From IMG/VR virus record IMGVR_UViG_2541047739_000006: DNA of 34,603 nt. One strand, given 5' to 3'. Origin of the DNA: a virus. Lineage: Duplodnaviria > Heunggongvirae > Uroviricota > Caudoviricetes. Numbering within the stretch: the first letter of the stretch is position 1; every line of letters begins with the position of its first letter. Below are positions 17,845 to 34,603 of this stretch, piece by piece. A model generated the notes under the pieces. It saw nothing but the letters and a program-made list of their open reading frames with translations, had not been told where the DNA came from and made no database searches. The translations under genes were made by a program, and so were the position numbers.

Positions 17845-17957
17845 ACCAACCCCCTTTAGCGTTGTTTAGAATGGCAATCATCATATATCCAAGACATGGC
17901 ATTTGGTACATAGCTTGGGTCGGGATTTCAAGTCCGCTCCCAGTTGATGGGGCCGTT

Positions 17958-18342
17958 ACAGTACGCGCATATCCGCTTTATGTGAAACAGGAAGATTTTT
18001 CTGATATCACTGCCACAGCAAAACACCAATTTCGTGACCAGTACGCGCGCGAGGGGTATCAGTTGCAAAATTTTTTGCAACTGCGTCCGACCAGTACGCA
18101 CACGATGGCGGGGGATACCATAAAACTGTTCTCTACATGAGACAGAGTGGTGGTGATGTGTTGATTATCGGCGTATATGCGCACAGGACGCGCTATGACG
18201 ATGTTTTATGCGGGTACACCAATCACATGTATCTGGTGTGATAAATCGCGTTACATGACCTCTCATGTTGTGCTGGTGGTTATCACGACTTTCTGAATCT
18301 GGCCTTTGCCTGATATTTTGCGACAAGTACGCGCGCGTAGCA
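17958..18342. repeat. repeat family with alternating-CG palindromic core (CAGTACGCGC at 17958; GACCAGTACGCGCGCGA at 18036; GACCAGTACGCACACGA at 18089; GACAAGTACGCGCGCGTAGCA at 18322) plus an 11-bp inverted repeat CAGTTGCAAAA-tt-TTTTGCAACTG at 18060..18083
   Basis: Read directly; a fifth copy lies at 19712..19734. Confidence 0.6.
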
Positions 18343-18365
18343 TCGACAGCATACACATTGGATAT

Positions 18366-18587
18366 TCATTTTGTGACCAATGCGATAAGTAGCGGGATAA
18401 GAATTGATAAAATCAACAGGCCGATGATCCACTTTTGATTTTCACTGGCCTTATCTCTATTTTCATCAATCTTATCAATAATTCGACGCTCCAATCCGTG
18501 CATATCACCGCGAATGGCAATCATCTCATTGCGAACATCAGGGAAGTGGTTGGCTTGATGTTCAATGTGTGGCGTTCTGCCTTTCAT
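18366..18587 (-). CDS. small tail-anchored membrane protein (coiled-coil N-terminus + C-terminal TM)
   Basis: 73-aa ORF; charged N-terminal region then WIIGLLILSILIPLLIALV; resembles XhlA/holin-like small proteins, not verified. Confidence 0.5.
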   Translation of the reverse strand: MKGRTPHIEHQANHFPDVRNEMIAIRGDMHGLERRIIDKIDENRDKASENQKWIIGLLILSILIPLLIALVTK

Positions 18588-18666
18588 ATCTGATCCTCAC
18601 CTATCGTCACTACCTGCTGGTGTATAAAGGTATTGGCCCAAGCAACTTTCCAATGGGCACTCATGT

Positions 18667-19122
18667 TTATACGCTGACCTTACAATCAATCACTGCTTTT
18701 AGCTTTTCAGCATTGCTTCCCTGACGCTTCCACGCGCTGTAAATATCTTTATCCCACGCTTTACCAGCTTTTGTTTGATAGCCTGCTTCATTGATCCGTT
18801 CAGCTATCACACGCCCATTATCAAATCCCTGTTGGATGGTATCGGCAATGATCTTTATAACTGCCGTTTCGTTATATGGTTTTGGTGGGATGTTCGGCTT
18901 TCCGGCAATAAGCGACGCAGCGGCTTTTTCCATGCGCTCCACCAGCCCAAGCATTCGTGAATCAATAGACTTTTCCGGCTGCCCCAGCTTCATGCGAATC
19001 GCATCAACAAGCCAGGAGGTTTTATCTCCTCCAGAAGCGAGAACAGACCGATTAAACTCATCCTGCAATTCAGATGGGATGCGGAACGCGACCAGATTAG
19101 ATTTGCTCATTGCAAAGACCAT
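18667..19122 (-). CDS. ribbon-helix-helix (Arc/MetJ-type) domain protein with C-terminal extension
   Basis: 151-aa ORF; N-terminus NLVAFRIPSELQDEFNRSVLASGGDKTSWLVDAIRMKL fits the beta-strand/helix/G-turn/helix RHH pattern (compare P22 Arc/Mnt). Confidence 0.6.
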   Translation of the reverse strand: MVFAMSKSNLVAFRIPSELQDEFNRSVLASGGDKTSWLVDAIRMKLGQPEKSIDSRMLGLVERMEKAAASLIAGKPNIPPKPYNETAVIKIIADTIQQGFDNGRVIAERINEAGYQTKAGKAWDKDIYSAWKRQGSNAEKLKAVIDCKVSV

Positions 19123-19220
19123 ATCAGTGAGTAATATCCATACAGTATACCACTGTATAACACTGTTATACGCTCAAATATCAGCCAGAAAATAACGGAC
19201 CAATCACAAATCTATCGCTG

Positions 19221-19352
19221 TGTTGTTGGTTCAGAGCTGGGCTGTGTTGGTTCAAAATGAGTTGATGTTGGTTCAATATTTCAGAAAAAACACAATAAAA
19301 ACAACAATCTTTACAAATTGAACCAACTGAACCAACTGAACCAACACCTTTT
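19221..19352. repeat. crr-like second iteron module; inverted copy of the ori module
   Basis: The reverse complement begins with the same 43 nt as the ori module (AAAAGGTGTTGGTTCAGTTGGTTCAGTTGGTTCAATTTGTAAAGA), followed by an AT-rich spacer and three TGAACCAAC copies. Confidence 0.55.
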
Positions 19353-19381
19353 TGCTTATCTATATAATCTGAGAGGCAGAA

Positions 19382-19663
19382 ATGATAAGGGACAGGAAAG
19401 CTGAAGAGCTGGAGTCAAAAGGGCTATACCGGAGAGCTGCCGCACGATGGATGGAAGTCATGCTGTTATGCACCGAGGACGATGATCGGGAATGGATAAA
19501 GCGCCGCCGTGAAACGTGTCTGGAGAACGTGAAGCGCCCGCCCGTGAAGGTTGAGGAATTTGGCGACCTGCATAAAGCTGTTACCGAAACGCAACACCGC
19601 ATGGGGATAGCGCAACCGAACGGTAACGCCTTCCGGTTAAATGGCGGCAAGAGGCAAAGGTAG
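19382..19663 (+). CDS. PerC-family transcriptional activator homolog
   Basis: 93-aa ORF; N-terminus MIRDRKAEELESKGLYRRAAARWMEVML matches the PerC/Pch family signature as I recall it. Confidence 0.6.
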   Translation: MIRDRKAEELESKGLYRRAAARWMEVMLLCTEDDDREWIKRRRETCLENVKRPPVKVEEFGDLHKAVTETQHRMGIAQPNGNAFRLNGGKRQR

Positions 19664-19960
19664 ACCACCAGAGGGAAATCATCCTCTGGCTGGCGGTTTC
19701 TGGTATTTCGGGACAAGTACGCGCGCGCGTAGCACCCAATCGGTGAGGAAATAGCGGCGACCTGAATGGTCAAAATCACAACGCAGCTATCCCCGTAAGC
19801 AGCGCTTAACGGAATAGCAGTAACCTGAATCCAGTGGGGAGGGGGTAGTCAAATCTCTACAGCCCTGACTATCCGGGACTGCCCGCCCCATCGTTTTTTT
19901 ATACCCGCGAAAAATGAAATTTAATCCGGGCGTGTTTCATTCTTCCAGAGGGTATGACGT

Positions 19961-20146
19961 ATGACACCACGCGAAATAGCCTTATTGACCATCGCCAAAC
20001 TTGAGCACGGAGGCCACCAGCTTACACAGGCAGATCAACGGGAGATAGAACGATCAGTTAATGCCGATATAGCCCGGCGCGACAGGTTCCGCGAAATGAT
20101 GCGAGCACCTGCCTACCAGTGGAAGAAGCCAGCGCCGCGCAGGTAG
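19961..20146 (+). CDS. hypothetical small protein
   Basis: 61-aa ORF with a GAGGG Shine-Dalgarno-like sequence upstream; no recognisable domain. Confidence 0.35.
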   Translation: MTPREIALLTIAKLEHGGHQLTQADQREIERSVNADIARRDRFREMMRAPAYQWKKPAPRR

Positions 20147-20266
20147 ATATGGGATTATTCCACATGTAACTTATGCGTATTAAGCAAATTTCCTTTATTC
20201 ACCTTTACAGAATTGTGAGTACGTCAGTATCGTTATCCTTCCGATTCGCATTTATTCAGGATTTGC

Positions 20267-20809
20267 ATGTACCAGCTAAAGATAACCATCCGAGACAGCA
20301 AACCACCTATATGGCGGCGTGTGCTGGTTCCAGAGCAAATCCCCTTTAGTAAACTTCATGCCGTGATCCAGTTAGCTTTTGGCTGGAATGACGAACACCT
20401 GTATATGTTCGAGAAAGGGCGTAAAGGTGATCCAGGTAGCGAGTATCGCGTATGGGGTGAGGATGAAAGCATGGGTAACGCGGCAATCACGCCACTATGG
20501 GCGGCGCTCCAGAATGAGGGTGACAAGCTGGTTTACACGTATGACTTTGGCGACTGGTGGGATTGCGTCATTGTGCTGGAGAAGCAAACACACGATACGA
20601 GTAATCAGCCCATTAGCTGCCTGCGTGGGAAAGGCACCACCCCGGCGGAAAACTCAGGCGGCTTGCATGGTTACAATGAATTGCTATTACAGGCCAGAGA
20701 GTCTGATAATCCTGAGCAGGCCGAGATCCACAATTTCCTGATGCTGGATATTGAACGCCGGGTTTACGACCTGAGCCGCATCAACGACAGATTGCAGGCT
20801 ATTAACTGA
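20267..20809 (+). CDS. plasmid pRiA4b ORF-3-like family protein
   Basis: 180-aa ORF; N-terminus LKITIRDSKPPIWRRVLVP...LHAVIQLAFGWNDEHLYMF is the hallmark of the pRiA4b ORF-3-like (PF07929) family. Confidence 0.75.
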   Translation: MYQLKITIRDSKPPIWRRVLVPEQIPFSKLHAVIQLAFGWNDEHLYMFEKGRKGDPGSEYRVWGEDESMGNAAITPLWAALQNEGDKLVYTYDFGDWWDCVIVLEKQTHDTSNQPISCLRGKGTTPAENSGGLHGYNELLLQARESDNPEQAEIHNFLMLDIERRVYDLSRINDRLQAIN

Positions 20810-21161
20810 CCCGCATGTATTCACCTGATATTGCGTTGTCAGCGCCGCCAGTATCGCGCATAACAGCGCACTGACCGGGTAAACCGTAGCGCACGACCGT
20901 TGCGTTAGTATCACCGCCGCGCCGTATCTGGCGCGATTCATACACTGTCACCCGCTCAAGCAGTCCACCAGCAACCATGCTTTCCAGTGTGCGCCGGGTT
21001 GATTCGAGCTGGTGACGCTTATCGAACGACACCATGCCATGAAGCAGGTAGGCCACACCCGACACATCGAACGGCGGCGCACCAATCTCACCAGTCACCC
21101 ATTCGAGGTTATCCGGTTCAAAGTAGCTAAGTATCTCTTTTTTGCGGCTGGTCATTCTCAT
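20802..21161 (-). CDS. hypothetical protein
   Basis: 119-aa ORF convergent with and overlapping the previous gene by 8 nt; AAGGA upstream. Confidence 0.5.
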   Translation of the reverse strand: MRMTSRKKEILSYFEPDNLEWVTGEIGAPPFDVSGVAYLLHGMVSFDKRHQLESTRRTLESMVAGGLLERVTVYESRQIRRGGDTNATVVRYGLPGQCAVMRDTGGADNAISGEYMRVS

Positions 21162-21279
21162 GGCTGGCTGATTCCTTATTGTGGGATAGCACTATCATAC
21201 AATAAGTGGGTTAAAGGGAGAGCGTTACCGCCTGATATGCTGTATGAATAACAACCAAATTTCAGGGGCGGAAAAAGAT

Positions 21280-21378
21280 ATGGGGGTACTTTTGGGGGTA
21301 TCTATAAAAAATGAACAATAAAAAAGGCAACAAAAACAAAGCTTATCGCCTATGTGTATTGTTCCTATTATCGCACAA
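21280..21378 (+). other. putative attR of the P4-like element (arm-type repeat ATGGGGGTACTTTTGGGGGTAT plus degenerate core TCCTATTATCG-CACAA)
   Basis: 21/22 match to the arm repeat at 1557; TCCTATTATCG at 21363..21373 matches the thrW 3' end at 1428..1438, then diverges. Confidence 0.4.
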
Positions 21379-21983
21379 TCAAGAAAATCAATAACTTAGC
21401 TTAACTTCTCTAAGAAATTGTATCTTCTGTTATCACTTACAAACGCCTATACGTTGTTATGGGCTTTGGTAGTGTAACACGTATGGGCGAGTAGTTCCCA
21501 GGCTCAACCTCGTAACAAGTTCCTTTGAAGCTGGAAGACGTGCCACCGTCTCTAAACCTTCTACCAAAACTCTTAGCAAGATGTTCCACACCTGGCGCGG
21601 TGTCCAATGATGCTACACGTCGTGAGACGTTGCAGAGGATAAACAGGCTAAATGATGGGAAGAGTTTTAAGTGCAATAGTGGATCAAAGCCCACCTCTTC
21701 AAAACCTAACTTGATCGGGAAAGAATCAAGCTCTAGCACGGTTTCGTCCACCGGAGTACAACGGGTGCCTGATAAGAGAAGAACTGCTAAGACTTCATAG
21801 CTTTTGTGAAAAAGCCCTTTTAGTGGATACGCCTACGGCGCTTATTTTTTGGGGTAGCCCATCAAAGGCGCTTTATGGCTCCTATTGTCTTGAAAATGTA
21901 TCTTTACTTGTATTGTGTTTTATGCGTAGTCTCCCTGTGTAGTATGTAACTTGTTAATTTTCATATGAATACAGAGGCACACG

Positions 21984-22142
21984 ATGAAAAACATTGCAGC
22001 TATCAAACGTAATAACCGCAAGATTCACGCTCGTAAGTTCCTGTCTACGCCAGAAGGAAAAGCCTGGCTAGAGCGTAAACAGAGAGAGAACGAAGAAAGA
22101 AAACTCCTTAATGAGTTGAAATGGCTTAGAGAGGATTTCTGA
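21984..22142 (+). CDS. hypothetical small basic protein (52 aa)
   Basis: ATG with GAGG 8 nt upstream; K/R-rich helical-looking sequence; below ORF-track cutoff. Confidence 0.3.
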   Translation: MKNIAAIKRNNRKIHARKFLSTPEGKAWLERKQRENEERKLLNELKWLREDF

Positions 22143-22310
22143 AAATCTCCAGAACGCAACAGGACGCATTCTAACGCTATTTTCATTGCTTGGTATAGGG
22201 ATGTATAGGTGATGTGTGTTTAATGCGTCTGTGCGCTTGTTTTGTGCCTTATTTTGCATTTTCATAATGCAGAAGAGAACACGGAAAACCTTAAAATTAA
22301 TTATTGGGGT

Positions 22311-22472
22311 ATTTAAGGGTATTTTCAGGTGATTTAAGGGTATTAAACTTGATTTAATTGATTAAAATATAAACAGATAGTTGTGTATCTTATTGATTTA
22401 TAAGGTTATTTTTAAATAAAGGTAAATAAAAAATAAATAGCCATAAATAGCTATAAATACATCTAAATACCT
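22311..22472. repeat. direct repeats ATTTAAGGGTATT x2 (22311, 22332) and four tandem ~10-bp units TAAATAsC (22434..22472)
   Basis: Read directly in AT-rich non-coding DNA; helical-turn periodicity. Confidence 0.55.
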
Positions 22473-22610
22473 ATATCCCTTCCCTTATGGCTAGATTGCG
22501 AGAGGTGCTTAACGCGATTTTCAGCGCCCCCCGATCTGGAAAATCCAGAATCCCCAAATATCAGCAAGGAATTTTCTTGCGTAATCAACATCGTTTTTAC
22601 CTATTAAATC

Positions 22611-23925
22611 ATTACACAGAAAGCCTTTCTGTAATGTCTCTCACTAAACTTTCACTAAACACGAGAATGATCGGTTTTATGTCGGATCAGATGCTAGAAA
22701 CAGCACCACGTCTCACAAGGACTGTAAGCGATGAAACCAGTGTTTATGCGGGTGCAGGTCAAAATATAGGCCAAAATCAATTTAACATAATAAACGTAAT
22801 ATGCACTAAGGAACACATAGAACGCCTTGAGTTGATGTATCAGGGGAAAAATGATGGATTTTTTACGTAGGAGCACGAGAGGGCTTCTGTTGACTTTTGT
22901 ATGCTATGAAACATAATTAAAGGTTTTTTTGTTTTTATTGTGTGATGTAGTGGATTACACAGGGGAATAGATTAAATGGTGTTCTGTTTATACAGGTTTA
23001 TTTGTTAGATCAACAATTTGGCATTTCTAAACAGATGTTTGAACGTTGCCAAATGTCTTGACAACACAAGAAAAGGGCTTGCTATGCCACGCATTACACG
23101 AAATAAGGCTGTAAAAACAAAATAAATTTTAAAATTTGCACAAACGAGAAAACTCGTTAAGAAACAAGCAGAACAATTTTTAGCCAACAATTTCTGATGG
23201 TGCTCTGTAGGCCGCACTACACAAGGATTTGCGAAAGTGATGTAAAAGTGAAGAAAGTAAGAATTGCACTTTTAAGCTACTTTTCATTGAATTTTTAGTA
23301 TGGAATTACACAGGAATAAGTTAGGGATATTCTATGATTTACACAGGGAATATAGGGGATTATGGCACACACATAGAAAGGCATTACACAGAGTGAGTGC
23401 TATGTGATGATTGGTAGTAACGGTAGGTCATAGTGAGCTAGGGGGTAGGTCACTGTGAACTACAATAAGACTATTAATAAAACTATATTAGATTATTAAT
23501 TAGATCATAATAATAATATTCTTTATATCTATATATATGATCTTTTGCCTTCCGGCGTTAGCTTCACTCTCTGGCAAGCAGCCTTACTCCGCTACCTTTC
23601 GGGCTTCGTGGCTGGCCCGTTCCGCTCACACCGAAAGCAAAGCGTTACTTTCTTCGTGTAACTTCGTTGGCGGTAACGCCCACGAAGAAATCTATTGCGC
23701 TGTGCGCAGTAAGAGTAATCACCTAACCAATCATACTGATTGCTTATGTGTTAACTCTCTCTAACTCTTAATTACCCTCCTACATTTAATAACTCTGTTA
23801 TTCTCTGTAGTTGTGTAATTACTCGAAGAGAGAGCGGCTAAAGCTCAATTACACTCTGCTTTCCTCGTGTAATTTCACTAAGCCTCAATACAATTTCACT
23901 TCCTACATTCTGTAGTCGTGTAATT
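22611..23925. repeat. dispersed iteron-like motif ATTACACAGG(G)AATA: about six forward copies (22611, 22954, 23093, 23305, 23337, 23383) then about four inverted copies (about 23655, 23813, 23866, 23916)
   Basis: Read directly; forward copies cluster upstream and inverted copies downstream of a GC-rich hairpin island. Confidence 0.55.
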
Positions 23926-24561
23926 GTTTTCGGTGGAAAAGCCAGAGGCGACACCGAAAGAGAATTCTGATCTTATTAATCTTATCTATCTTAGTTAATC
24001 TTCTTACTTATCTTACTTACTTTATCTACTTTATTATTAATAATAGCTTTATAAGCTCTCTGTGTAGCTCTCTGACGCAAGAAACAGCATTCAGGAAGGG
24101 AATCACCTTAGAAAAGGTGTTCTTTGCGTCATAATGTGTTTTATGAAGGATTCAGAGGTGTTTCATAACAGGAATGTATAGAGAATACTTTAGGTAATTA
24201 AAAATAAGGGGTCTAAATGCTTCTCTAACAGCATTAAGCAGGGTAGGGAATGGAAACGCATTGCCTACATATAATAAACTCACTACAGGGCTTTACAGGG
24301 CGTTTTATAAAGTGACTCTCTGTTTTATATCTACAATCACCTTTTCATATACCTAACAAATACAAAATAAGCCCCTTAAATAAGCCTCTGGCGAGCTAAA
24401 CAGACATTACATAAGAGAATGTATTGCTTTTATCAAAACTTCGTTAGAACGCGTTTTAGAGCGTTTTAGCGGATAATGAAGAATAGCACTACACAGAAGA
24501 GCACGAATTGCCAAGACAAATTATAACATGCTGAAAAAGATCGATTTTTTCGAAAAGGGTA

Positions 24562-24590
24562 TTGACAAATGTTTCTTTATATGTAATAAT
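24562..24590 (+). promoter_or_regulatory. sigma70-like promoter (TTGACA, about 17 bp, AATAAT) preceded by palindrome TTTTCGAAAA
   Basis: Consensus -35 at 24562..24567; AT-rich -10 at about 24585; about 115 nt upstream of the first gene of the operon. Confidence 0.35.
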
Positions 24591-24703
24591 AGGTATTAGA
24601 GGGACAGAAAAACATTCTTCTCTAAATAATCAAAATCAATGCACTTTGAAGCCGTCAGGCTTGCAAGGTGTTTTATTTCTTTTAACTGAATAAGGAGTTT
24701 TTT

Positions 24704-24892
24704 ATGAAATGGTTTACACCGGAGCACGTCGTAAAGGCATTTAAAAAAGGTGAGCTTACACGCCACCAAATAGTAATGAATCGTAATATGGCAAGGAGTC
24801 GAGGTTATCCAGAGCGAGCAGCTTGCTTCAATGAAGCACTCAAGATTATTGATGAACTAAGAAAAAATGAAAAAGAATCTGAAACAGAGTAA
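24704..24892 (+). CDS. hypothetical small protein
   Basis: 62-aa ORF with AAGGAG 7 nt upstream of ATG. Confidence 0.55.
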   Translation: MKWFTPEHVVKAFKKGELTRHQIVMNRNMARSRGYPERAACFNEALKIIDELRKNEKESETE

Positions 24893-24911
24893 AGAAGAGA
24901 AGGAGAAAACT

Positions 24912-25082
24912 ATGAGCGAAGCTACAGAAAAGAAAAGACAACCACGCACTTGCTTTCATATTCCTGATGAAGTATTTCAGGTGTTGTTTAAAGAAGCCAG
25001 AAGTAAACGTATCACTGTTACAGATTACATTCTTGATATGTTGAAAAGAGAGGCTGAAACACTCTCAAATAAAAGCAAGTGA
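24912..25082 (+). CDS. small putative DNA-binding protein (56 aa)
   Basis: AAGGAG 7 nt before ATG 24912; the listed 24867 start overlaps the upstream gene. Confidence 0.5.
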   Translation: MSEATEKKRQPRTCFHIPDEVFQVLFKEARSKRITVTDYILDMLKREAETLSNKSK

Positions 25083-25135
25083 TTTTTATCACCATAGTAG
25101 CGCCATAGAGCGTGATTACATCAAGGAGATTTTTA

Positions 25136-25828
25136 ATGATTAACCAACTAACTTTTACAAAACACTATGACACGTTTGATAATATATCAAAGATTTATTC
25201 TGATAAATTCCCTCAAGGAAAAGATTTAGATCTATTACATATTGTGCTTTATTTTCGATTCCTTAGTTATCAGGAAAACAACCTTAATTGTTATGAAAGT
25301 CACGAAACATTAGCTAAGATTTTTAAGTCTTCACCATCAACAATTAAACGTAAGATAAACGATCTTAAAGAGATGGGATTATTAGAAACATCCCCACATC
25401 CTGATCCGTATATTTCATCTTTGATTTACAATGCTCTCCCTCTCACAGATGCACATATTACTCCCCCAGGAGAATCATCACTCTCTGATCTTTCTGAGGC
25501 AGAAGAAGCACAGGAACAACCTAAAGGCCATAAACAGCCTTCTTTTGATGTTCTTGATGATGATTGGGATACGCCTTTACCCTGGGAGACGGAAGAAACA
25601 CCTGTTTCATCAAGTGAAAAGGTAGCTAATGATAATGAGGAGGATGTGTTAGAGAATTTTGCCTCTCTTATCATCCAGGAGAAACACAAAAGAACAGGAG
25701 GGGCATCATTTATAGAATTTGCAAATTCACTAGCTTGTAGATACGGGCTAAAACGACCAAATGGTATTGAGGCATATTTTTCTAAGCATTACCCAAATGT
25801 ATACGAAGACTTTGATATTCCCTTTTAA
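25136..25828 (+). CDS. replication-initiator-like protein (wHTH N-domain, acidic linker)
   Basis: AGGAG before ATG 25136; ETLAKIFKSSPSTIKRKINDLKEMGLLE helix-turn-helix; acidic stretch DLSEAEEAQEQ...DDDWDTPLPWETEE. Confidence 0.6.
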   Translation: MINQLTFTKHYDTFDNISKIYSDKFPQGKDLDLLHIVLYFRFLSYQENNLNCYESHETLAKIFKSSPSTIKRKINDLKEMGLLETSPHPDPYISSLIYNALPLTDAHITPPGESSLSDLSEAEEAQEQPKGHKQPSFDVLDDDWDTPLPWETEETPVSSSEKVANDNEEDVLENFASLIIQEKHKRTGGASFIEFANSLACRYGLKRPNGIEAYFSKHYPNVYEDFDIPF

Positions 25829-25844
25829 AAAGTAAGGAGGACTA

Positions 25845-26123
25845 TTGATACAGTATTTAATAAAAAGCAAAGTAGACAGAATTCAGTGTAACGACACAGG
25901 AAAACGCATCTACGAAACGCTTGCTTACCTCTATAAAGGAAAGCCAACACCGCTAAAATATAGCGATGTGTTACATCGAGCAGGTTGCTCTGAGTCAGGT
26001 TTAAAATTCTGGCTGAAACAGCTATCAAATTTCGGTGTTATTGAAATGAAAGAGCTGTCTTTCTCTACATTTAATCTCAAAAGACTAGATAAAGAAATAG
26101 AATTCATCTATTCCACTCTCTAA
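25845..26123 (+). CDS. hypothetical small wHTH-like protein
   Basis: 92-aa ORF with AGGAGG upstream. Confidence 0.55.
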   Translation: MIQYLIKSKVDRIQCNDTGKRIYETLAYLYKGKPTPLKYSDVLHRAGCSESGLKFWLKQLSNFGVIEMKELSFSTFNLKRLDKEIEFIYSTL

Positions 26124-26255
26124 AATCTCTCTATGTAATTAAAATATAAAAGGAAAACATTATTATGATAGTAGCTATGTATTGGTTATTGTTCTTTCTC
26201 ACGTTAGAAGCATATTTCGGGGTGTTTTCCTTTAAAAGAAAAGGAAAAGTAAATT

Positions 26256-26666
26256 ATGGCAAAAAGAAAAAACAACGTTGTTAAGAAAATCGGTGATTCA
26301 GCTTCTCTTCTAAGTAAACCTAAATCTATTCTAAAACGTAAAGACTTTAAAGAGCTAGTTACGCTCACCAAGCATAATAGCGCCCCTGGCGAATGGAAAA
26401 CAGAGATCATAGAACATTCTCCCTCTGTGCCTTGTGGAGATGAATATATCGCCTTACAAGAAATCTTATCTTCAACACCTGGCGTGTTCTGGAAACCTAA
26501 AAAAAGAAAAGAGTATATCGTTGATAGCTCTGATTTACGCAAATACCAGATTTTAGGATTTGAAGATTATAATCACTACGTTGGTTATCTCGCCACAAAT
26601 GGCCTAAATAATTTAGTTCCTGAATTCCAGATTTTAGATAATGCAGATCACTATGGAGACTTTTAA
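26256..26666 (+). CDS. hypothetical protein with basic N-terminus
   Basis: 136-aa ORF starting MAKRKNNVVKKIG. Confidence 0.6.
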   Translation: MAKRKNNVVKKIGDSASLLSKPKSILKRKDFKELVTLTKHNSAPGEWKTEIIEHSPSVPCGDEYIALQEILSSTPGVFWKPKKRKEYIVDSSDLRKYQILGFEDYNHYVGYLATNGLNNLVPEFQILDNADHYGDF

Positions 26667-26667
26667 T

Positions 26668-27006
26668 ATGAACAAAAACACGTATGACACAATTTACTCA
26701 CTAATTAATTATTATGAGGATGATTACCTCCTGCCTTTAAACCGCGCTGAACTTGAAGCATACAAAGAAAACACGCCAGCGGCACTAAATGAGGCGTTTA
26801 AACACTGGGATTTAGCTGTGAATGCCTTTGAGCACCTCTCTAAGCGTGTAGAGATGCTCTGTAAGCGCGAAAACGCATACCTGACAGCCGATCAGGTATG
26901 GGAATTATCAAACTGGATAGAAGATATTGAATCTGATGTTCGCTATGTGGGAGATGGACTTGTTGAACTAGCGCAACGCTTAGGCGCTACTATCACAGAA
27001 GAATAA
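26668..27006 (+). CDS. hypothetical protein (113 aa)
   Basis: ATG 26668 right after the upstream stop, GGAG upstream; the listed 26641 start overlaps. Confidence 0.55.
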   Translation: MNKNTYDTIYSLINYYEDDYLLPLNRAELEAYKENTPAALNEAFKHWDLAVNAFEHLSKRVEMLCKRENAYLTADQVWELSNWIEDIESDVRYVGDGLVELAQRLGATITEE

Positions 27007-27256
27007 AAAAAGCAACAAAAAAGTTGTAAAATATCTTGGCATTCCATCTATTGTATGTTAATATAATTATATAGGGGTGATTATTTTTCCTTTATTGGTT
27101 CGATATTAAAAATTCTTCCTGTCATTAAAGGGGAGTAAAATCTCCGCTCCCCGCTTCTTCTCCTCCTTAAGTAAATACTGTGCCATTATACCTCTTTGTT
27201 ATGCATACATCTTGGAGTATGCATAACATAGGGTAATTACATAGGTATGAGTTAAT

Positions 27257-27288
27257 AAAAGGCGGCTTTAAATGCTGCCTTTTATTTT
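27257..27288 (+). terminator. intrinsic terminator between the early and structural operons
   Basis: AAAGGCGGC-TTTAAAT-GCTGCCTTT stem-loop followed by TATTTTG. Confidence 0.45.
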
Positions 27289-27350
27289 GCCCGTTATACA
27301 ACTTAAAAGTTGTATTTCTTACTTTAAACAAGGTAACAAGGTTTATATAA

Positions 27351-27563
27351 ATGTTGCTCTTAAATGATAAAGAGCAAATCATCAAGTATAAAGATGAAAT
27401 GCTGAAAATTAATCCACAAATTACCGAAATGGTAGCTAAATACGCTGGGTGTTCTGTCGAGGAAGTAGAAAGATGTGTTGAAAAATATTTTTCTCCTTCT
27501 TCTCCGTCTACACCTTCCCTTAATGAATTAATCAAATTAAAAGCTAAGGAGATTACTAAATGA
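27351..27563 (+). CDS. hypothetical small protein
   Basis: 70-aa ORF; its stop overlaps the next start. Confidence 0.5.
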   Translation: MLLLNDKEQIIKYKDEMLKINPQITEMVAKYAGCSVEEVERCVEKYFSPSSPSTPSLNELIKLKAKEITK

Positions 27564-27922
27564 TTATTGATTTAGACACTCTGTTTCCAGTTCGAAAGAC
27601 TTTCACGGATATTGTAAGTTATTGTACTGATCCGTTTGCCTCTGTAGAAAGCAAGGTTTTTGCTTCTCTTCCTGCTGATGTTGAGTGCGGCGACTTGATC
27701 ACCAGCACTGGCGCTAAATATGAATCAGGAGATGATATTTATGTTGTTATGAGTGAATTTGTAACGGCTGGAGAAAACAAGCCTGTAGATGTGCTACGTA
27801 GCAATGCTGGGCTTGTATGCATCAAAGCTGATGCGCTGAATGCTGTAAGTGAAGCAGCAAAAACAGCATTAATTAAAAAAGGCTTTCAGCTTGAAGGGTT
27901 CCATTCTGTTTTCACTTCTTAA
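27560..27922 (+). CDS. hypothetical protein (possible scaffold/decoration-type partner of the next gene)
   Basis: 120-aa ORF, ATGA-coupled to the upstream gene, 18 nt before the 342-aa gene. Confidence 0.6.
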   Translation: MIIDLDTLFPVRKTFTDIVSYCTDPFASVESKVFASLPADVECGDLITSTGAKYESGDDIYVVMSEFVTAGENKPVDVLRSNAGLVCIKADALNAVSEAAKTALIKKGFQLEGFHSVFTS

Positions 27923-27940
27923 TAAAAGGAATAATAATAA

Positions 27941-28969
27941 ATGATTCTAGGTAATGATTACGTTGATTTAGCTCCTCTGTTCTCTGCGCATAGCACTAGA
28001 AATTATCTACTTTCTACTCTCGACTTCACTGATCCGGTGGGCGTTAGTTCTCATAAAGTAGCTGTTTCCCAGCTTGTCGAAAGCAACGAATCTCTCTTTA
28101 ACAAAGAGACAAGCCGTTTTAGTTCTGAACACAATGTTACTAAGCGAGAACAAGGTAAAGAATGGCTGATCGAAATCCCTTACTTCCTGCGTGAAGATGT
28201 GATCCGTCCTTCTGATGTTCAAGGCAAGCGTAAGCCTGGCACTGATTTTCAGGAAACACTCACTGATATTTATGCTGACTATGTTGCTAAACACCACGTA
28301 GCGTATCAGCGTACAAAAGAGAGCGTGCTGGCTGCATCTCTGTTTAGCGGTAAAACTTACACGCCTAAAACTGATGATGTTCTTATCGAGTGGAGCAAGC
28401 TGTTTAACGTATCAGCTATGAAAGCCACTGTGAACGCTTCCAGCACTGACACCACGAAGATTTTTAAAGAATTTGATCAGATTGCTACTGACATTATCGA
28501 AAAAGCACAGAGTCAGGCGGCGGCTGTAGAGCGAATTGTTGTTTTCTGTAAGCCGGAAGCCTTCTCTGCAATTCGATTCTCTGCTGGTATGGCAAACGCA
28601 TTCCAGTATGTAAGCCCACTGGAAGAGGGGAACGTTGTGTATCAGCGTCGTGACCTGCTGCCAGGGGTGACAGCGTTCACTATTCCAGGAACTAACATTG
28701 ATGTTGTTAAACTGGTAGATCCGCTACACCTGGCACATATGACCGCAGACGCTGTAGCTGTGCCTAAATTCTCTAAGGGTAGCGGAATTTATACCAACAT
28801 CTACGGGGCTGCTTCCAGCACCTTTGAACTGATTAATGCCGCTCCTGCTGAGGTGTATAGCTATAGCTATGAATCTTCTCGTGGTGATGCTGTTAACGTT
28901 GTTACAGAGAATAGCCAGATGGTGGTAAACCACGGTGTAGGCTTCTCCGTTCAAATCACTGTTAAATAA
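27941..28969 (+). CDS. major structural-like protein (342 aa), family unknown
   Basis: Long ORF followed directly by a strong intrinsic terminator, as for a highly expressed capsid or coat gene; beta-rich C-terminus. Confidence 0.75.
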   Translation: MILGNDYVDLAPLFSAHSTRNYLLSTLDFTDPVGVSSHKVAVSQLVESNESLFNKETSRFSSEHNVTKREQGKEWLIEIPYFLREDVIRPSDVQGKRKPGTDFQETLTDIYADYVAKHHVAYQRTKESVLAASLFSGKTYTPKTDDVLIEWSKLFNVSAMKATVNASSTDTTKIFKEFDQIATDIIEKAQSQAAAVERIVVFCKPEAFSAIRFSAGMANAFQYVSPLEEGNVVYQRRDLLPGVTAFTIPGTNIDVVKLVDPLHLAHMTADAVAVPKFSKGSGIYTNIYGAASSTFELINAAPAEVYSYSYESSRGDAVNVVTENSQMVVNHGVGFSVQITVK

Positions 28970-28987
28970 TATTTTAACGTGTAATAG

Positions 28988-29022
28988 AGGCGTGGCGTGA
29001 ATAACACGCTTCGCCTTTTTTT
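28988..29022 (+). terminator. intrinsic terminator
   Basis: AGGCG ... inner hairpin GCGTG-AATAA-CACGC ... CGCCT followed by TTTTTTT. Confidence 0.6.
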
Positions 29023-29055
29023 ATTTATTTTTAAATTTTGAGAGGTGATTAAAAT

Positions 29056-29259
29056 ATGGAAGTGATTTTGAAATCAAAAAATGGTGTACACGTACATTTA
29101 GATGCTAATGATTCTAGAGGATTGTTAAATCTGAAATATCTCTGTTCTCTTTTAGATGTTCCCTATGAAGGAGTAAAAGCCCGTATGTTCAGATTAAACG
29201 AGAGTATTGATCAGGCTCTACACCATTTCTTAAGCAAAGAAGGTGGTAAAAATGATTAA
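29056..29259 (+). CDS. hypothetical small protein
   Basis: 67-aa ORF with GAGAGG upstream. Confidence 0.5.
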   Translation: MEVILKSKNGVHVHLDANDSRGLLNLKYLCSLLDVPYEGVKARMFRLNESIDQALHHFLSKEGGKND

Positions 29260-30178
29260 TAAGGGGATTTTAAATGTTAGAAATTAACACTTCTAAAATT
29301 AAGAACACAGTAACATTTAGTGTAGATAAAGACAGCTTGAAAAAAGCGAAAGACTCTATTACAGGCTTAAAGGAATTTGCAGAGAATATCAAGCCAGCTA
29401 AGTTAAGGTTTGATAATGTCACTAAAGGCTATAAGAAAGCACAAAGTGAAGTAGACAAGATTGCTCAACAGAAAGCTAAAGCCGAAAAACAGAATCAAAG
29501 AGTACAAGCTGCCGCAGCAAGAGCACAGGCAAGGCAACAGCAACAAATAGCAGCACGTAAAGAGAAAGCAGAATTAAAACTCCTCGATGTGTCAAGCTCT
29601 ATCAGTGCAATGCACCGTCTCTCTGTAGCTGAACAATACAAAGCTATTGCACAGGCTAGAGAAATTGCCCTCCAATATGAAAGAGGCGCTATTAGTCTGG
29701 CACGTATGAATAGCCAGATGAAACGCTTACAACAGCAACAACGTAAGATTAATGGCAACAGAAAAGCACAATTAGCCCCCGTTAAGGGAGGATCAGGGAA
29801 TTCCGCCACTATGGGCGCTCTGTTATTTGGAGGCGCTACGGCTGCTGCTGGCGTGATGGCTGTTAGTAAAGCGTCGGAGTTTGTTAGTAGCAGTTTCGCT
29901 AACGCAGAGACCCAAGGGGAGCTAATCCAACGTGCAAGGCTTGGCGGTGTAGACGTTAACCAGATGTATAATATTACAGAATGGGCGTATAGAAACGGCG
30001 TTGACTCTATGATGGGTGATCAAGGGGCTAGGAAATACCTGGATCAGATGAAAGATGTTAGGGAACGTGCCGCAAAATCCTACAGTGAAGCTGAATTGGT
30101 GAAAGACAAGAAAACCGGAAAATCTGAATGGAAAGGCGGTGATAATGCTATTAATGAACTTCTAAACTGGATTTGCCC

Positions 30179-31084
30179 CTATATTTCCAGACATCTGTTA
30201 TCACTTAACCCATTACAAGCCCGCTGCCGCAGATATTCCCGTGGCGAGCGATAACCCAGCGCACTATGCGGATGCCATTCGTTATAATGCTCGAACGCCT
30301 CTGCAAGGTTCTTTGCTGCCGTTAACCCGTCTGGTTTGGGCATGATACTGATGTAGTCACGCTTTATCGTTTTCACGAAGCTCTCTGCTATTCCGTTACT
30401 CTCCGGACTCCGCACCGCCGTGTTCTTCGGTTCAAGTCCCAACATCCGGGCGAACTGGCGTGTTTCATTAGCCCGGTAGCATGAACCATTATCCGTCAGC
30501 CACTCCACTGGAGACGACGGAAGATCGTTGCCGAAGCGGCGTTCCACCGCTCCCAGCATGACGTCCTGTACTGTTTCACTGTTGAAGCCGCCGGTAGTGA
30601 CCGCCCAGTGCAGTGCCTCACGATCACTGCAGTCCAGCGCGAACGTGACACGCAGTCTCTCTCCGTTATCACAGCAGAACTCGAACCCGTCAGAGCACCA
30701 TCGCTGATTGCTTTCTTTCACGGCCACTCTGCCTGTATGTGCCCGTTTCGATGGCGGTACAGCAGGTTTTCGCTCAAGCAACAGCGCATTCTGGCGCATG
30801 ATCCGGTAAACACGTTTGGCATTGATCGCAGGCATACCATCAAGTTCTGCCTGTCTGCGAAGCAGCGCCCATACCCGACGATAACCATACGTGGGCAGCT
30901 CTCCGATAACATGGTGTATACGGAGAAGCACATCCGTATCATCAGTGTGACGACTGCGGCGGCCATCCATCCAGTCATCGGTTCGTCTGAGAATGACGTG
31001 CAACTGCGCACGCGACACCCGGAGACAACGGCTGACTAAGCTTACTCCCCATCCCCGGGCAATAAGGGCGCGTGCGCTATCCAC
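30179..31084 (-). CDS. insD: IS2 OrfB transposase (InsD)
   Basis: 301-aa [34 protein letters not shown]...; recognised IS2 InsD. Confidence 0.93.
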
Positions 31085-31407
31085 TTTTTTGCCCGTCCAT
31101 ATTCAACGGCTTCTTTGAGGAGTTCATTTTCCATCGTTTTCTTGCCGAGCAGGCGCTGGAGTTCTTTAATCTGCTTCATGGCGGCAGCAAGTTCAGAGGC
31201 AGGAACAACCTGTTCTCCGGCGGCGACAGCAGTAAGACTTCCTTCCTGGTATTGCTTACGCCAGAGAAATAACTGGCTGGCTGCTACACCATGTTGCCGG
31301 GCAACGAGGGAGACCGTCATCCCCGGTTCAAAGCTCTGCTGAACAATTGCGATCTTTTCCTGTGTGGTACGCCGTCTGCGTTTCTCCGGTCCTAAGACAT
31401 CAATCAT
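31042..31407 (-). CDS. insC: IS2 OrfA (InsC)
   Basis: [41 protein letters not shown]...; recognised IS2 InsC. Confidence 0.93.
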
Positions 31408-32473
31408 CTGCTCTCCAATGACTAGTCTAAAAACTAGTATTAAGACTATCACTTAAATAAGTGATACTGGTTGTCTGGAGATTCAGGGGGCCAGTCTATA
31501 AACATCGGTGTTATTAACAAAAGCGACCTTAAAAAATTTGCTGATAATCCGGCTGGATTAATTTCTAAGGCTGTTAATGGAATGATGAAAAAAGGGTTTT
31601 CAGACTCCCAAATTGGACAACGTTTAGAAGACCTGGGCGATGATTTGATGCTTACGTCAAAATATTGGCAACGTTCCGTTAAAGATGTACAAGAAAGTAT
31701 TAATCAGCAAAAAGCCTCTGGAAAATGGCTAACAGAAACACAGCAAGACTCTATTGTTAAATTCAGAGAACTAAACAGACAGCTTTCACAGCTTTCTGAT
31801 GCAAGACAAGTAGCATTCGTAGACGGCTTTATGAAATCTCTCGATCCAAAAGTAACGGAAGAGTTTATGAAAAACCTTTCTAATCTCACTCCGTATTTTA
31901 CGAAGCTGGGAGAAGCTACAGGAAGTCTCTTTGAAGCTATTATGAAGATTGTAAACTGGTTTAATCGTAATGATGATAAGACAGATGCTATTCAGAAAAA
32001 TATGGGTGATGCACCGCCATTAAGCAATGAAGGGATGAAACAGAATCTTTCTAATCTCGTTCCTAATCAATATAAAGGCGCTGGCACTGCAACAACTACA
32101 CCTGATAATAGTCATTCTCTCTTTAACACAATTAAGGGATTGCTTTTCGATGATAATTCTTCTGTGTCAGATGTAAAAATGTCAGTCAATGAAGCACCGA
32201 TAACCAATCTCAAACAGGGTGCTTTAAATAATCTTGCAATGACAACTCCAGCTTATAATTTATCTCCTGTGTTTAATCTGAATCCTACATTTGAAGTGGT
32301 AACAGAAGTGCCGCTAACTATCGAATCAGACACCGGACGATTGAGCGATTATGTGGATTTTACAGCGAGAGCAAGTCGGGATAGCTTCTTGAAATCATTA
32401 ACATTAACCAGCTTATCAGGACAATCCAACGGCGGGTAATTCCCGCCATAACATTACAAGGAAAATTATTATT

Positions 32474-33187
32474 ATGGCGACCGCCGGGATTTTAACCATA
32501 CGTGCAGCAAATACTCCAGAACAACACGTTCAGGCTGTTTACAAAGCAGAACAAGATATAAATTCTACAAAAAACGAAAATAGCAAAGCTAATAAAACAA
32601 AAGGAGAGAACGGATTTGCTATTGTTACCAGTGGCTTGGCATCTTCTGGTAATGACGTTTATGAAAATTATATGGCACTGGCCTTTGATAGTGTTGACGA
32701 TGTGAACGTGAGACGTTCGGCAGATGTCACAAGCTACCCCGTAGAAAATGGTGCTACTGTGTCTGATCACGTTCAAATTAAAAACAATAAGTTCTCTCTT
32801 AAAGGGCGTATCACTGAAACACCGATTAAAAGCGATCCTGGCTTGTTAAAGAGTGCAGGGGTGAACGGGAACAGAAGATCATTAGCTATAGACTACTTGA
32901 ATCAGATTATGGACAGTAGACAGCCTTTTCTTCTTGTTACAGAAAATAAAACTTTTGAGAACGTTGTTTTAACAGGCATCGAATACACAGAAGAGGCAAG
33001 CGAATCCCTGGTATTTGATCTTAGCTTTGAACAAATAAGATTAGTTTCTTATGGTACTGTAAACACTGTAGCTATCAAAACACAGCCATCTAAGAACATC
33101 GGGGCGAATATGAAAAAACGTGTTAACACTGAAAAATCAAGTAGTGAAGGTGAAGACACTATTACTCCTGCCTTTAAACAGGAATAG
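32474..33187 (+). CDS. hypothetical structural-like protein (237 aa)
   Basis: Follows the IS2-split gene on the same strand; no recognisable catalytic motif. Confidence 0.65.
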   Translation: MATAGILTIRAANTPEQHVQAVYKAEQDINSTKNENSKANKTKGENGFAIVTSGLASSGNDVYENYMALAFDSVDDVNVRRSADVTSYPVENGATVSDHVQIKNNKFSLKGRITETPIKSDPGLLKSAGVNGNRRSLAIDYLNQIMDSRQPFLLVTENKTFENVVLTGIEYTEEASESLVFDLSFEQIRLVSYGTVNTVAIKTQPSKNIGANMKKRVNTEKSSSEGEDTITPAFKQE

Positions 33188-33268
33188 CCGTAAATGCCTC
33201 TAAAACGCTCTGTAACGATGTAATTATAAAAGAGGCTACCAATCTATGTTGAAGCCTCTTTATTGCGT

Positions 33269-34603
33269 CTATGGCGTTGTTTTGCGCATTAAATTTGATT
33301 TTTTATTGATTGATAAGCCTTTCTCTATTTCAGGGTAGCGTAGAAGCTCAATATAGTTTTTAAGCTCTACTGGAGAAGCTGCATTCTTGCTATATGTGCG
33401 GAATGTCTCTGTATTGCCGCGTGTATGGCCCAGGAGAAGGGCGATCCTGTCTTCTGGAATTTGATTTCGATCAAGAAGCTGTGCTACTCCGTGTCTCAGA
33501 GAATGAAACACCTTCCTTTCTGTTCCCTTTTCCCCTAAAGCCTTTCGTTTAGCTCTTGTAAATCTCTGCGTGTGCCACGTGGAACGTTTACCATCAGCAC
33601 GCTCTGTAATGCTGGCGTGATAGAACAAAAAGCCATTATGAGGCTTTTCACGCAGCGACAACACCAACGGAGTGATAAGGCTATGCACAGGCACAAGACG
33701 TGCCGCAGCTTTCGTTTTTCCCTGTGTGATTTCAAAACACAGCACACCTTCGATCTCTTTCACATCGTCTATTGTGAGACTTGCTATCTCATTGATCCGC
33801 ATACCTGTATAAGCACCGATAAGACACAAAGCCATCATTTCTTTGTTTTCTGCTGAATCACCGGAAAATACTTGCAACACCTGCAATAGCTCTTTGTTAG
33901 AAAATGCCTCGTAGCTCTCTCTACTTTGTGCCACATCAAGCCTATGCCCTCGCCAGGGGGAGAGCGCCCTTTCTGGCGCATCGTGGTAACGTGATGAAGC
34001 TAACTCCCATAGCTGGGCCATTGGGCTGATATAATTTGCAATTGATTGTTGTGAAAGGGTTTTTTGCATGTGTTCTATCCAGCCTGTAACAGTGGTGCGG
34101 CTTACATCTTGCAATGCAATATCAGGCTTTTTACGGTAGGAGAGAAACATCTCTACCGCTTTTCTTGCCTTAGCTAAAGTGGCTGGCTTCTTCTTCGTGC
34201 TGTTAATTGTCAGGTAGATTTCAAGAATTTTAAGCAATGACGGACACGAAGACGCTGTATCTTGCATTCTGGTAGCTGTTTTGGCGTATTTAGCCTTACT
34301 GCGTAACAGTTCCAGCGTGTTCTCTATTGTGCTGTTTACAGGGGCGACACTCTCCCGTAGACAATGGTATTCATCTGCAATCTGATCACGCTTTCTACGT
34401 GCAACACGAAGACTACTTGTGTGCAGACTTCTGACAAACGTCCTTTTTCCTTCAAAAAAGGGCTGCATATACACAGGCAACGTGATCCTCAAATAGTAGT
34501 TACCGTAAGAATCACAGATTATGTATTGATTGGGCTTGTATCTCATAAACTCCCCGGCTAAAGTGTCGGAGCGTTTGTAATGTGAAAATTGATTGTAACG
34601 CAT
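33269..34603 (-). CDS. tyrosine site-specific integrase (second element); 5' end at window edge, possibly incomplete
   Basis: 444-aa ORF with tyrosine-recombinase motifs (YTGMRINE arginine, HSLRH, LLGHT, nucleophile Y in TFRTYSKN); the initiator ATG is the last three bases of the window. Confidence 0.85.
   Translation of the reverse strand: MRYNQFSHYKRSDTLAGEFMRYKPNQYIICDSYGNYYLRITLPVYMQPFFEGKRTFVRSLHTSSLRVARRKRDQIADEYHCLRESVAPVNSTIENTLELLRSKAKYAKTATRMQDTASSCPSLLKILEIYLTINSTKKKPATLAKARKAVEMFLSYRKKPDIALQDVSRTTVTGWIEHMQKTLSQQSIANYISPMAQLWELASSRYHDAPERALSPWRGHRLDVAQSRESYEAFSNKELLQVLQVFSGDSAENKEMMALCLIGAYTGMRINEIASLTIDDVKEIEGVLCFEITQGKTKAAARLVPVHSLITPLVLSLREKPHNGFLFYHASITERADGKRSTWHTQRFTRAKRKALGEKGTERKVFHSLRHGVAQLLDRNQIPEDRIALLLGHTRGNTETFRTYSKNAASPVELKNYIELLRYPEIEKGLSINKKSNLMRKTTP

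Follow-up and report, generated by a model that had tools for sequence, protein, structure and literature searches.

We analysed the IMG/VR virus record IMGVR_UViG_2541047739_000006 (Caudoviricetes), a stretch of 34,603 nucleotides (nt) that is called the window below. From ~21362 to past its right end, the window carries a discrete AT-rich element of ~12.4 kb, plus an IS2 insertion, that is bounded by attachment (att) sites. The features of the element are summarized in Table 1. It opens with a ~3.3-kb desert (21383-24703), non-coding save for a single gene of 52 amino acids (aa), which is followed by an early operon including the gene of a predicted replication initiator (Rep), by two groups of structural genes separated by a terminator-like hairpin, and by an integrase gene. 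The PGAP annotation and our own list of open reading frames (ORFs) were concordant, and they agree with the first-pass annotation of this DNA, made from the letters alone, in the order of genes for 70, 120 and 342 aa, a terminator, genes for 67, 609 and 237 aa, and an inward-reading integrase. The AT-rich island that it had placed after a presumed attR is clearly visible, as the GC content falls from ~0.49-0.52 at 19.5-21 kb to 0.34-0.40 from ~21.5 to 29.5 kb and rises again within the element only over IS2 (30-31.5 kb, 0.52-0.54). The GC-rich hairpin cluster was likewise located, and the winged helix-turn-helix (HTH) protein resembling a replication initiator was matched by two profile families. 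Of the nearly gene-free desert, the non-coding character was borne out by the ratio of non-synonymous to synonymous substitution rates (dN/dS), with the amendment that the 52-aa gene is real.

Two Escherichia coli chromosomes were used to define the boundaries. The region under study is 100% identical in E. coli AF3 (NZ_OZ547117.1) and 95.8% identical in E. coli O26:H11 11368. In the latter, hereafter the O26 copy, the element immediately follows thrW, without a further island in between, and is flanked by 23-bp direct repeats (ACTCCTATTATCGGCACCATTAA), of which the left is the 3' end of thrW and the right lies just past the integrase gene. As the O26 copy stands alone between thrW and the 23-bp repeat, the element is a discrete unit of ~12.4 kb and the integrase is its own, as the first-pass annotation had assumed; that annotation had also proposed to look for uninterrupted copies in other genomes, and the O26 copy is one. 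The integrase comprises a DUF6538, a SAM-like and a catalytic domain, reads into the element, and adjoins attR in both O26 and AF3. Homology between the window and the O26 copy begins at 21363, at a degenerate att core (tcctattatcg-cacaatcaa, compared with CTCCTATTATCGGCACCATTAA in thrW) with three differences from the thrW 3' end and the O26 attL core. The right att site, which was to be sought to the right, lies outside the window and was placed with AF3, where a slightly degenerate copy is found ~90-110 nt past the window end (L001, 25313-25335); as AF3 and the window are not alike over the left 21 kb of the latter, this right-flank position is by proxy only. The left part of the window is ~11 kb longer than its counterpart in AF3. 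Alignment to the O26 copy set the limits of IS2 at 30168-31498 (minus strand), with a 5-bp target duplication. With its tape-measure gene broken by IS2 and degenerate cores at both att sites, the window copy is probably immobile and inactive, in keeping with the damage suspected in the first-pass annotation. Between thrW and the element, at 1445-21362, the window carries another island with its own tyrosine integrase, close relatives of which encode P22-gp16-type DNA ejection proteins, a TOPRIM/DUF927 primase-like protein and PerC; thrW therefore bears a tandem array of two unrelated integrative elements.

The structural genes point to one group of phages. The best relatives of the capsid, tape-measure and initiator proteins in the PDB are phi92 chains in all three cases. 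The closest solved relative of the 342-aa major capsid protein is phi92 gp124 (2.3e-19 with a family profile), to which it is 21% identical over its full length; the identity to all sequenced phages is 21-25% only. The 120-aa decoration protein encoded upstream was identified by structure search only, as its sequence comparison with phi92 gp123 was non-significant. No significant sequence match was found between the 70-aa protein (45-49% identity within the family) and the phi92 scaffold gp122, and the 67-aa protein (33-54% identity within the family) shows no sequence similarity to phi92 gp133. The 609-aa protein, described in the first-pass annotation as coiled-coil, is a tape measure. Its best solved relative is phi92 gp134 (1e-38), a protein of 659 aa; the N-terminal 66 aa are 55% identical and residues 150-609 28% identical, with a conserved C-terminus. 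Full-length identity to the phiWec188 protein is 28%. Within the element family the tape measures are 609-622 aa long, compared with 651-659 aa in the phages. The window protein matched 134 phage records, mostly Escherichia or Klebsiella phages, and all 25 phages among the matches listed have genomes of 130-151 kb, the genome size of Stephanstirmvirinae. Four records labelled Campylobacter phage A150, A145, C3 and A110a (MG065639, MG065645, MG065656, MG065689; 146 kb) behave as E. coli Justusliebigvirus, and their host label looks wrong because their matches are identical to those of VEcB-like phages. The 237-aa protein is a tail-tube initiator, a second assignment that the first-pass annotation did not make; it shares 58-61% identity with phi92 gp135 and with the orthologues of Justusliebigvirus and Phapecoctavirus, and its PDB matches are headed by 21vq_N (Phi92_gp135, 2.1e-78), followed by PhiTE and Pam3 'tube initiator' proteins. 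The gene order corresponds to two excerpts of the phi92 structural module, namely decoration protein, capsid protein and terminator, and small ORF, tape measure and initiator.

A second link to the same phages lies in the desert. When 21380-24700 was compared by blastn with all phage genomes, a site of 46-78 nt was the single feature found. Over these 46 nt, window positions 22490-22535 match phi92 positions 363-318 at 95.7% identity (E = 2e-10, 2.3 Gb searched), and the same site was matched in VEcB, PHB05 and many relatives. Since the left direct terminal repeat (DTR-L) of the phi92 record is annotated at 1-343, the match spans the right boundary of the DTR, with the junction GAGGTGCT^TAACGCG on the strand of the element. 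In BME3, a close relative of phi92, the DTR was determined as 342 bp by PhageTerm (PMC12210895). Alignment of four element lineages (E. coli, the locus L007, K. pneumoniae and Buttiauxella) with phi92, Klebsiella phage phi1_175008, Citrobacter phage Tr1 and a 153-kb IMG/VR contig gave a site of exactly 58 nt without indels, consisting of an invariant GTGCTTAACG, 41 nt and AAATATC, with 20 invariant columns. A pattern scan of 2.9 million IMG/VR contigs returned 20 matches: four phage contigs (97, 149, 149 and 153 kb), 14 copies of the element and two identical, chance-like matches. Within IMG/VR the site is thus confined to Stephanstirmvirinae genomes and copies of the element, plus one chance-like sequence. 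The Klebsiella phage record starts with AGCACCTTCTC and the sequence right after the right-boundary cut is AGCACCTCTCGC, which fits a terminase cutting before AGCAC at both ends of the repeat. From these comparisons we infer that the site may serve as a packaging signal of a helper phage. Two further matches collinear with the concatemer junction of phi92, 23006-23055 with DTR positions 184-135 (E = 0.013) and 24186-24217 with phi92 positions 147365-147334 (E = 0.001), were suggestive and too weak to use. An E. coli-type copy of the element, in which the 52-aa gene is 98% identical and the 58-nt site occurs too, is also present in a 9.4-kb contig labelled 'MAG: Bacillota bacterium' (L020, JAEWTL010000083.1); this label is probably a binning artefact.

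Searches of the element ORFs with Pfam, PHROGs and NCBIfam revealed no portal, terminase, protease, tube, sheath, baseplate or conjugation family, which agrees with the first-pass annotation as regards terminase, portal and conjugation genes. Phage homologues were restricted to the genes of the capsid, the tape measure and the initiator; they are essentially lacking for the early genes and the desert, bar three marginal matches in the Rep region (E = 2-3e-3) that were obtained when the non-structural proteins, the small ones concatenated, were compared with 50,697 phage genomes. The missing packaging and tail-body genes, together with non-structural proteins that have essentially no phage homologues, were counted as evidence of helper dependence. 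With its own shell, tail ruler and Rep, no packaging machinery, and a site like the genome ends of phi92, the element is therefore most likely a satellite, and we consider it probable, if well short of certain, that it is an integrative satellite of virulent phi92-like myoviruses (Stephanstirmvirinae) belonging to an undescribed family. The suggestion in the first-pass annotation that the region is an undescribed mobile element or satellite, and neither a standard tailed prophage, P4 nor a plasmid, is supported by these results. Homology to a known family had been named there as evidence to the contrary; such homology does exist, in the structural genes and the site of phi92-like phages, and it strengthens the satellite idea. 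No account of such an element, of satellites of phi92-like phages or of these proteins was found in the full-text literature, subscription-only literature lying outside the scope of the search.

A rival explanation is a satellite of some other helper. For the capsid protein, identity is uniformly low (21-25%) across all sequenced phages, for the tape measure it is only 28-37%, and several members of the family are without the exact 58-nt site, all of which would agree with an unsequenced helper, such as a phage that is temperate or smaller and closer in its capsid, and with a likeness to phi92 that reflects shared ancestry of the modules. We regard this as very unlikely in view of the E. coli site, which is 95.7% identical to phi92 and close relatives, and of the tube initiator, which is ~60% identical. 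Moreover, the site of the K. pneumoniae satellite is nearest to that of a Klebsiella Stephanstirmvirinae phage, with 44 of 58 positions shared compared with 32-35 for the other phages.

Table 1. Features of the element in the window (positions of the whole 34,603-nt stretch)
Feature	Position	Strand	Remarks
Degenerate att core	21362-21382	+	Hybrid of attR of the upstream thrW island and attL of the element
52-aa basic protein	21984-22142	+	PGAP; sole real gene of the desert
58-nt mimic of helper terminal-repeat boundary	22505-22562	+	Putative terminase recognition/cleavage site, GTGCT^TAACG-N41-AAATATC
ATTACAC(AG) repeat field	22611-23924		Direct 22611-23391, inverted 23813-23924, around the GC-rich cluster
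22-bp near-palindromic repeats, two copies	23422-23462	+	GGTAGGTCAyrGTGArCTA; candidate Rep-specific iterons/origin
GC-rich hairpin cluster	23537-23735		Cis element; contains TTGCGCTGTGCGC at 23695-23707
Sigma-70 promoter of early operon	24562-24590	+	TTGACA-17-AATAAT, extended TG; 11/12 consensus positions
Early operon	24704-27006	+	Six genes, order conserved across genera
62-aa protein	24704-24892	+	Early operon
56-aa protein	24912-25082	+	Early operon; weak Arc-like match
230-aa winged-helix replication initiator (Rep), predicted	25136-25828	+	Pfam HTH_36 1.1e-5; PHROG 270 'replication initiation protein' 1.1e-9
92-aa protein	25845-26123	+	Early operon
136-aa protein	26256-26666	+	Early operon
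112-aa protein	26668-27006	+	Early operon
Late promoter and structured leader	27036-27350	+	Sigma-70-like 27036-27064, TTGGCA-17-TAATAT with TG
70-aa protein	27351-27563	+	First gene of capsid operon
120-aa capsid decoration (cement) protein, gpD-like	27560-27922	+	Decoration-protein fold, structure search
342-aa major capsid protein	27941-28969	+	HK97 fold, lambda gpE family; Pfam Phage_cap_E 2.5e-14; PHROG 29
Intrinsic-terminator-like hairpin	28994-29020	+	After capsid gene, hairpin proper at 28994-29010; phi92 has a terminator at the same place
67-aa protein	29056-29259	+	Upstream of tape measure
Tape measure, 609 aa intact	29274-32439	+	Interrupted by IS2; PHROG 16051 1.4e-54
237-aa tail-tube initiator, Dit-like	32474-33187	+	Pfam Dit_like 3.4e-29
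425-aa tyrosine integrase	33269-34546	-	Pfam Phage_integrase 5.6e-17; DUF6538 5.6e-9

Coding content was assessed by comparison with the O26 copy. All annotated genes had dN/dS values of 0.04-0.25, those of the early operon falling at 0.06-0.25. For the 52-aa desert gene, dN/dS was 0.04 relative to O26 and 0.23 relative to the divergent copy in locus L036; no family was matched by its product in profile searches. The two longest ORFs of the desert, one of 127 aa over the terminal-repeat site and one of 75 aa over the GC-rich cluster, were rejected as genes because their dN/dS values were 1.11 and 0.74. Over the left 2.1 kb of the desert, the divergence from O26 is ~3% with gaps counted and 2.3% in mismatches alone, which is below the synonymous divergence of the genes (0.06-0.33) and suggests either constraint or recent exchange. 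Window positions 21674-22137, the left end including the 52-aa gene, are 96.8% identical to L036, whose capsid protein is only 72% identical, so that this left arm is common to otherwise divergent lineages. Other than Rep, no early-operon protein could be assigned to a family or to a phage homologue, and PADLOC returned no defence-system match, only generic HTH matches to Rep. In five related loci (L023, L028, L030, L033 and L014) the Rep gene, and separately the 56-aa gene, is replaced by variants of 43-64% identity where flanking genes are >90% identical; members of the family thus swap their replication and regulation modules like cassettes.

The desert contains several families of repeats, as expected from the iteron-like repeats noted in the first-pass annotation. 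GTGTAAT/ATTACAC occurs 12 times in the window, compared with 4.35 expected, and nine of the 12 lie within the repeat field of Table 1; all close E. coli variants carry 8-11 copies of ATTACAC, regardless of Rep type. Another family, the 22-bp near-palindromic GGTAGGTCA...CTA repeat, is present in two copies in the window and 5.3 in O26. Among 25 related loci, at least two copies of GGTAGGTCA were found only where Rep is at least 91% identical to that of the window, including the otherwise divergent locus L035, and loci with Rep variants at 53-54% and 51% identity have CAGAATTCTG and ACCCCTATC repeats instead. Covariation of Rep type and repeat family is the expected signature of Rep-iteron specificity pairs and supports the reading of the palindromic arrays as candidate iterons; Rep itself is matched to PHROG replication-initiator families. 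The array content differs between otherwise near-identical elements: relative to window positions 23440-23465, the O26 copy (L002, 14060-14540) has ~440 extra bases of short arrays, namely 5.3 copies of the 22-bp TAGGTCATAGTGAGCTAGGGGG, 2.8 of the 23-bp ACCTAGGAAATGAGTTCCTACCT and 2.6 of the 18-bp TCTGATACCCCTATCAAA.

Within the GC-rich cluster, TTGCGCTGTGCGC is unchanged in all lineages for which this region was identified (those of E. coli, Citrobacter and Klebsiella; loci L009, L010, L015, L020, L021, L034-L037, L040 and L041), even where the proteins are ~55-60% identical, and occurs twice in L020 and L035. The hairpin before it varies in sequence and keeps its stem-loop form (GGCG-GTAA-CGCC, GCG-TGAAA-CGC, CCG-TGAAA-CGG). 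We do not claim the cluster as an RNA gene; its folding is only moderately above that of shuffled sequences (z = -2.8/-2.9) and alike on both strands. An Rfam scan of 20500-34603 at E <= 1 gave two sub-threshold chance matches and nothing in the desert.

Upstream of the early operon, the promoter region TTGACAAA is conserved in the Klebsiella relatives. The capsid operon is preceded by a 285-nt late leader that folds far better than shuffled sequences (z = -5.7) and contains two terminator-like hairpins, and this layout of promoter, long leader and terminator is common to the divergent relatives L007 and L009. Late expression would probably need antitermination.

Homologues of the capsid protein fall into 53 clusters from E. 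coli, Citrobacter, Klebsiella, Enterobacter, Cronobacter, Dryocola, Sodalis and Serratia, and those of the 136-aa early protein into 276 clusters, chiefly from Klebsiella. In complete E. coli genomes the capsid module was found in 314 of 5,426 (~6%), always on the chromosome and once or twice per genome. In K. pneumoniae, Buttiauxella, Kluyvera, Scandinavium, Citrobacter and metagenomic loci the order is conserved, with the early genes followed by those for the 70-aa, decoration and capsid proteins and then by the 67-aa and tape-measure genes. Their integrases are only 33-56% identical and their integration sites differ; the same gene order with other integrases also occurs in Enterobacter. 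The tube initiator is variably present among the relatives. In the K. pneumoniae relatives L009-L011, small ORFs of 42 and 92 aa replace the 237-aa gene, and a Dam-family methyltransferase gene (~4394-5083) is found where the E. coli stretch is non-coding.

These data bear on the possibility that the element is a decaying remnant of a temperate relative of the phi92-like phages, whose structural genes and terminal-repeat fragment would then be relics. Every phage-like part does have phage homologues, the window copy carries IS2 and degenerate att sites, and the non-coding stretch is large. Against such decay, the same compact gene set and order recurs in at least eight genera with proteins of 35-65% identity, portal, terminase or tail genes do not lie in between at any locus, be it intact or as pseudogenes, and dN/dS is at or below 0.25 for all genes. 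In addition, blastn detected no phage gene remnants in the non-coding region, the left 2.1 kb of which diverges less than synonymous sites, and the known Stephanstirmvirinae are virulent phages of ~145-155 kb. A remnant is therefore a decidedly improbable explanation.

If the element is indeed a satellite of phi92-like phages, we propose the following course of events from induction to transfer. Infection by the helper would turn on the early operon from the promoter at 24562, the element would excise, and Rep would fire the iteron origin in the non-coding region. Read-through of the terminator-bearing leader would then give expression of the late genes, and the capsid and decoration proteins would form a small shell, sized for ~12 kb, on the portal and assembly machinery of the helper. 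The helper terminase would recognise and cut the GTGCT^TAACG site, so that satellite DNA is packaged. The satellite tape measure, 40-50 aa shorter than that of the helper and sharing its N- and C-terminal ends, would together with the tube initiator seed altered tails on helper baseplates, with the tube and sheath of the helper. The resulting particles would reach new cells with the host range of the helper, probably at its expense.

Several observations weigh against this interpretation. The capsid protein is ~21% identical to that of phi92 and is encoded without a scaffold, protease or portal, and because of this distance and these missing genes, co-assembly with helper parts is a proposal only. 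No repressor or helper-sensing gene was identified among the element genes. Only one boundary of the terminal repeat is mimicked, as no site resembling the left boundary was found in the element. The exact 58-nt site was not found in five of the 11 surveyed family loci (L014, L015, L018, L019 and L021), which include the Kluyvera, Scandinavium and Citrobacter NCU1 relatives, and blastn detected no phage match in the non-coding DNA of the Klebsiella and L007 relatives, although a regular-expression search did find the site in both. The predicted attP junction was absent from the IMG/VR and JGI metagenomes when searched by exact match only, and contigs of 11-13 kb with the element proved to be chromosomal fragments and not circles.

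The failure of the same exact attP search to reveal an excised or packaged form would also be expected of a non-transmissible anti-phage island, which would poison phi92-like phages with decoy structural proteins and a decoy terminase site, to the benefit of the bacterial population, and would itself remain unpackaged. The homologies and the terminal-repeat site would serve interference equally well, and a tape measure with conserved termini and a diverged middle is what a dominant-negative competitor would have. However, the capsid and decoration proteins are under strong purifying selection across genera, which argues for a real shell, and the integrase, att sites, Rep with iterons, patchy distribution and swapped integrases are hallmarks of a mobile replicon. 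PADLOC found no defence matches beyond generic HTH, and interference is in any case compatible with the spread of a satellite. We therefore consider a purely defensive island unlikely. The conserved compact architecture and the selection on the capsid-decoration pair are the observations that speak most strongly against both the decoy and the remnant explanations.

The satellite interpretation can be extended from the window copy to the family. There is in our view an even chance that these elements constitute a widespread family of Enterobacterales satellites (common in Klebsiella and found in ~6% of complete E. coli genomes) that exploit ~150-kb virulent myoviruses of the phi92/phAPEC8 type by forming chimeric virions. 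The division of such virions is part of that evenly balanced proposal: capsid, decoration protein, tail ruler and initiator would come from the satellite, and portal, terminase, baseplate, tube and sheath from the helper.

In its general properties the element resembles known satellites, being mobile with its own integration functions, having an incomplete set of virion and packaging genes, and carrying a predicted packaging site of helper type. By our comparison it would work most like the capsid-forming phage-inducible chromosomal islands (cf-PICIs), reportedly described by Alqurainy et al. in 2023, with further resemblance to PLE and P4, and it lacks the defining gene sets of all three and of the classical PICIs. 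In common with a cf-PICI, it would be an integrative satellite of small size that makes a major capsid protein of HK97 fold itself, in place of a remodelled helper protein. A cf-PICI, in contrast, encodes portal, protease, head-tail connectors and small and large terminase, and steals only tails; neither the portal, protease and connector genes nor those of small and large terminase (HNH) were found here, whereas the element has a tape measure and a tube initiator and its putative helper is a virulent 150-kb myovirus. For classical PICIs, the gene set tested comprised an alpA/stl regulator, a pri-rep primase-helicase and terS/ppi/rpp or cpm; no primase, AlpA or TerS families were detected with Pfam, PHROGs and NCBIfam, and only the integrase is shared.

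PLE of Vibrio cholerae is a satellite of the virulent myovirus ICP1. Like PLE, the element would reside in the chromosome and parasitise a strictly lytic myovirus, and small capsids and interference with the helper are expected of it. PLE, however, combines the ICP1 coat protein with an external scaffold that it encodes itself, and has a large serine recombinase and a RepA_N initiator; the element instead brings both a capsid and a decoration protein, together with a tyrosine integrase and an HTH_36 winged-helix Rep. Sequence similarity to PLE was not detected, nor were its characteristic genes. PLE is also mentioned in PMC12846349. With P4, whose helper is P2, the element shares a size of ~12 kb, integration at a tRNA gene and a tyrosine integrase, and it would resemble P4 in its predicted replication functions, in its putative site for the processing of helper DNA ends (cos in P4) and in a need for the packaging enzymes of the helper. 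P4, unlike the element, encodes no structural protein of capsid or tail, and the site described here mimics a DTR boundary and not cos. None of the P4 markers sid, psu, delta and alpha primase-helicase had a match in the element in Pfam, PHROGs or NCBIfam, and a P2-type cos site did not turn up either, the 46-78-nt site being the sole hit of 21380-24700 in phage DNA. The phi92-like phages (Stephanstirmvirinae, with Justusliebigvirus and Phapecoctavirus) share with the element homologues of gp124, gp134 and gp135, their local order and the 58-nt site. They are, in contrast, virulent phages of ~148 kb with full virion and replication gene sets, whereas the element is integrative, measures 12 kb, and has five or six phage-like genes and an unrelated early region; none of the replication, packaging or tail-body genes or pseudogenes that would mark a Stephanstirmvirinae prophage was found.

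Phages of the phi92, VEcB and phAPEC8 types are lytic phages of broad host range that are often isolated for, or considered in, therapy against E. coli and Klebsiella. For this phage subfamily, the site GTGCT^TAACG...AAATATC would provide a concrete candidate for terminase recognition and cleavage. If the proposed interpretation is correct, the element would be the first satellite known to carry a tape measure and the first described for these therapy-relevant phages. A resident satellite would then be a strain-specific resistance factor against therapy phages, and supposedly "safe" virulent phages would drive a route of gene transfer. The element would also offer a new model in which a parasite of 12 kb changes the size of head and tail alike in a virus of 150 kb, and would extend the repertoire of satellites beyond P4, PICI, cf-PICI and PLE with a new family and a new division of labour, in which the satellite supplies the shell and the tail ruler and none of the packaging enzymes.

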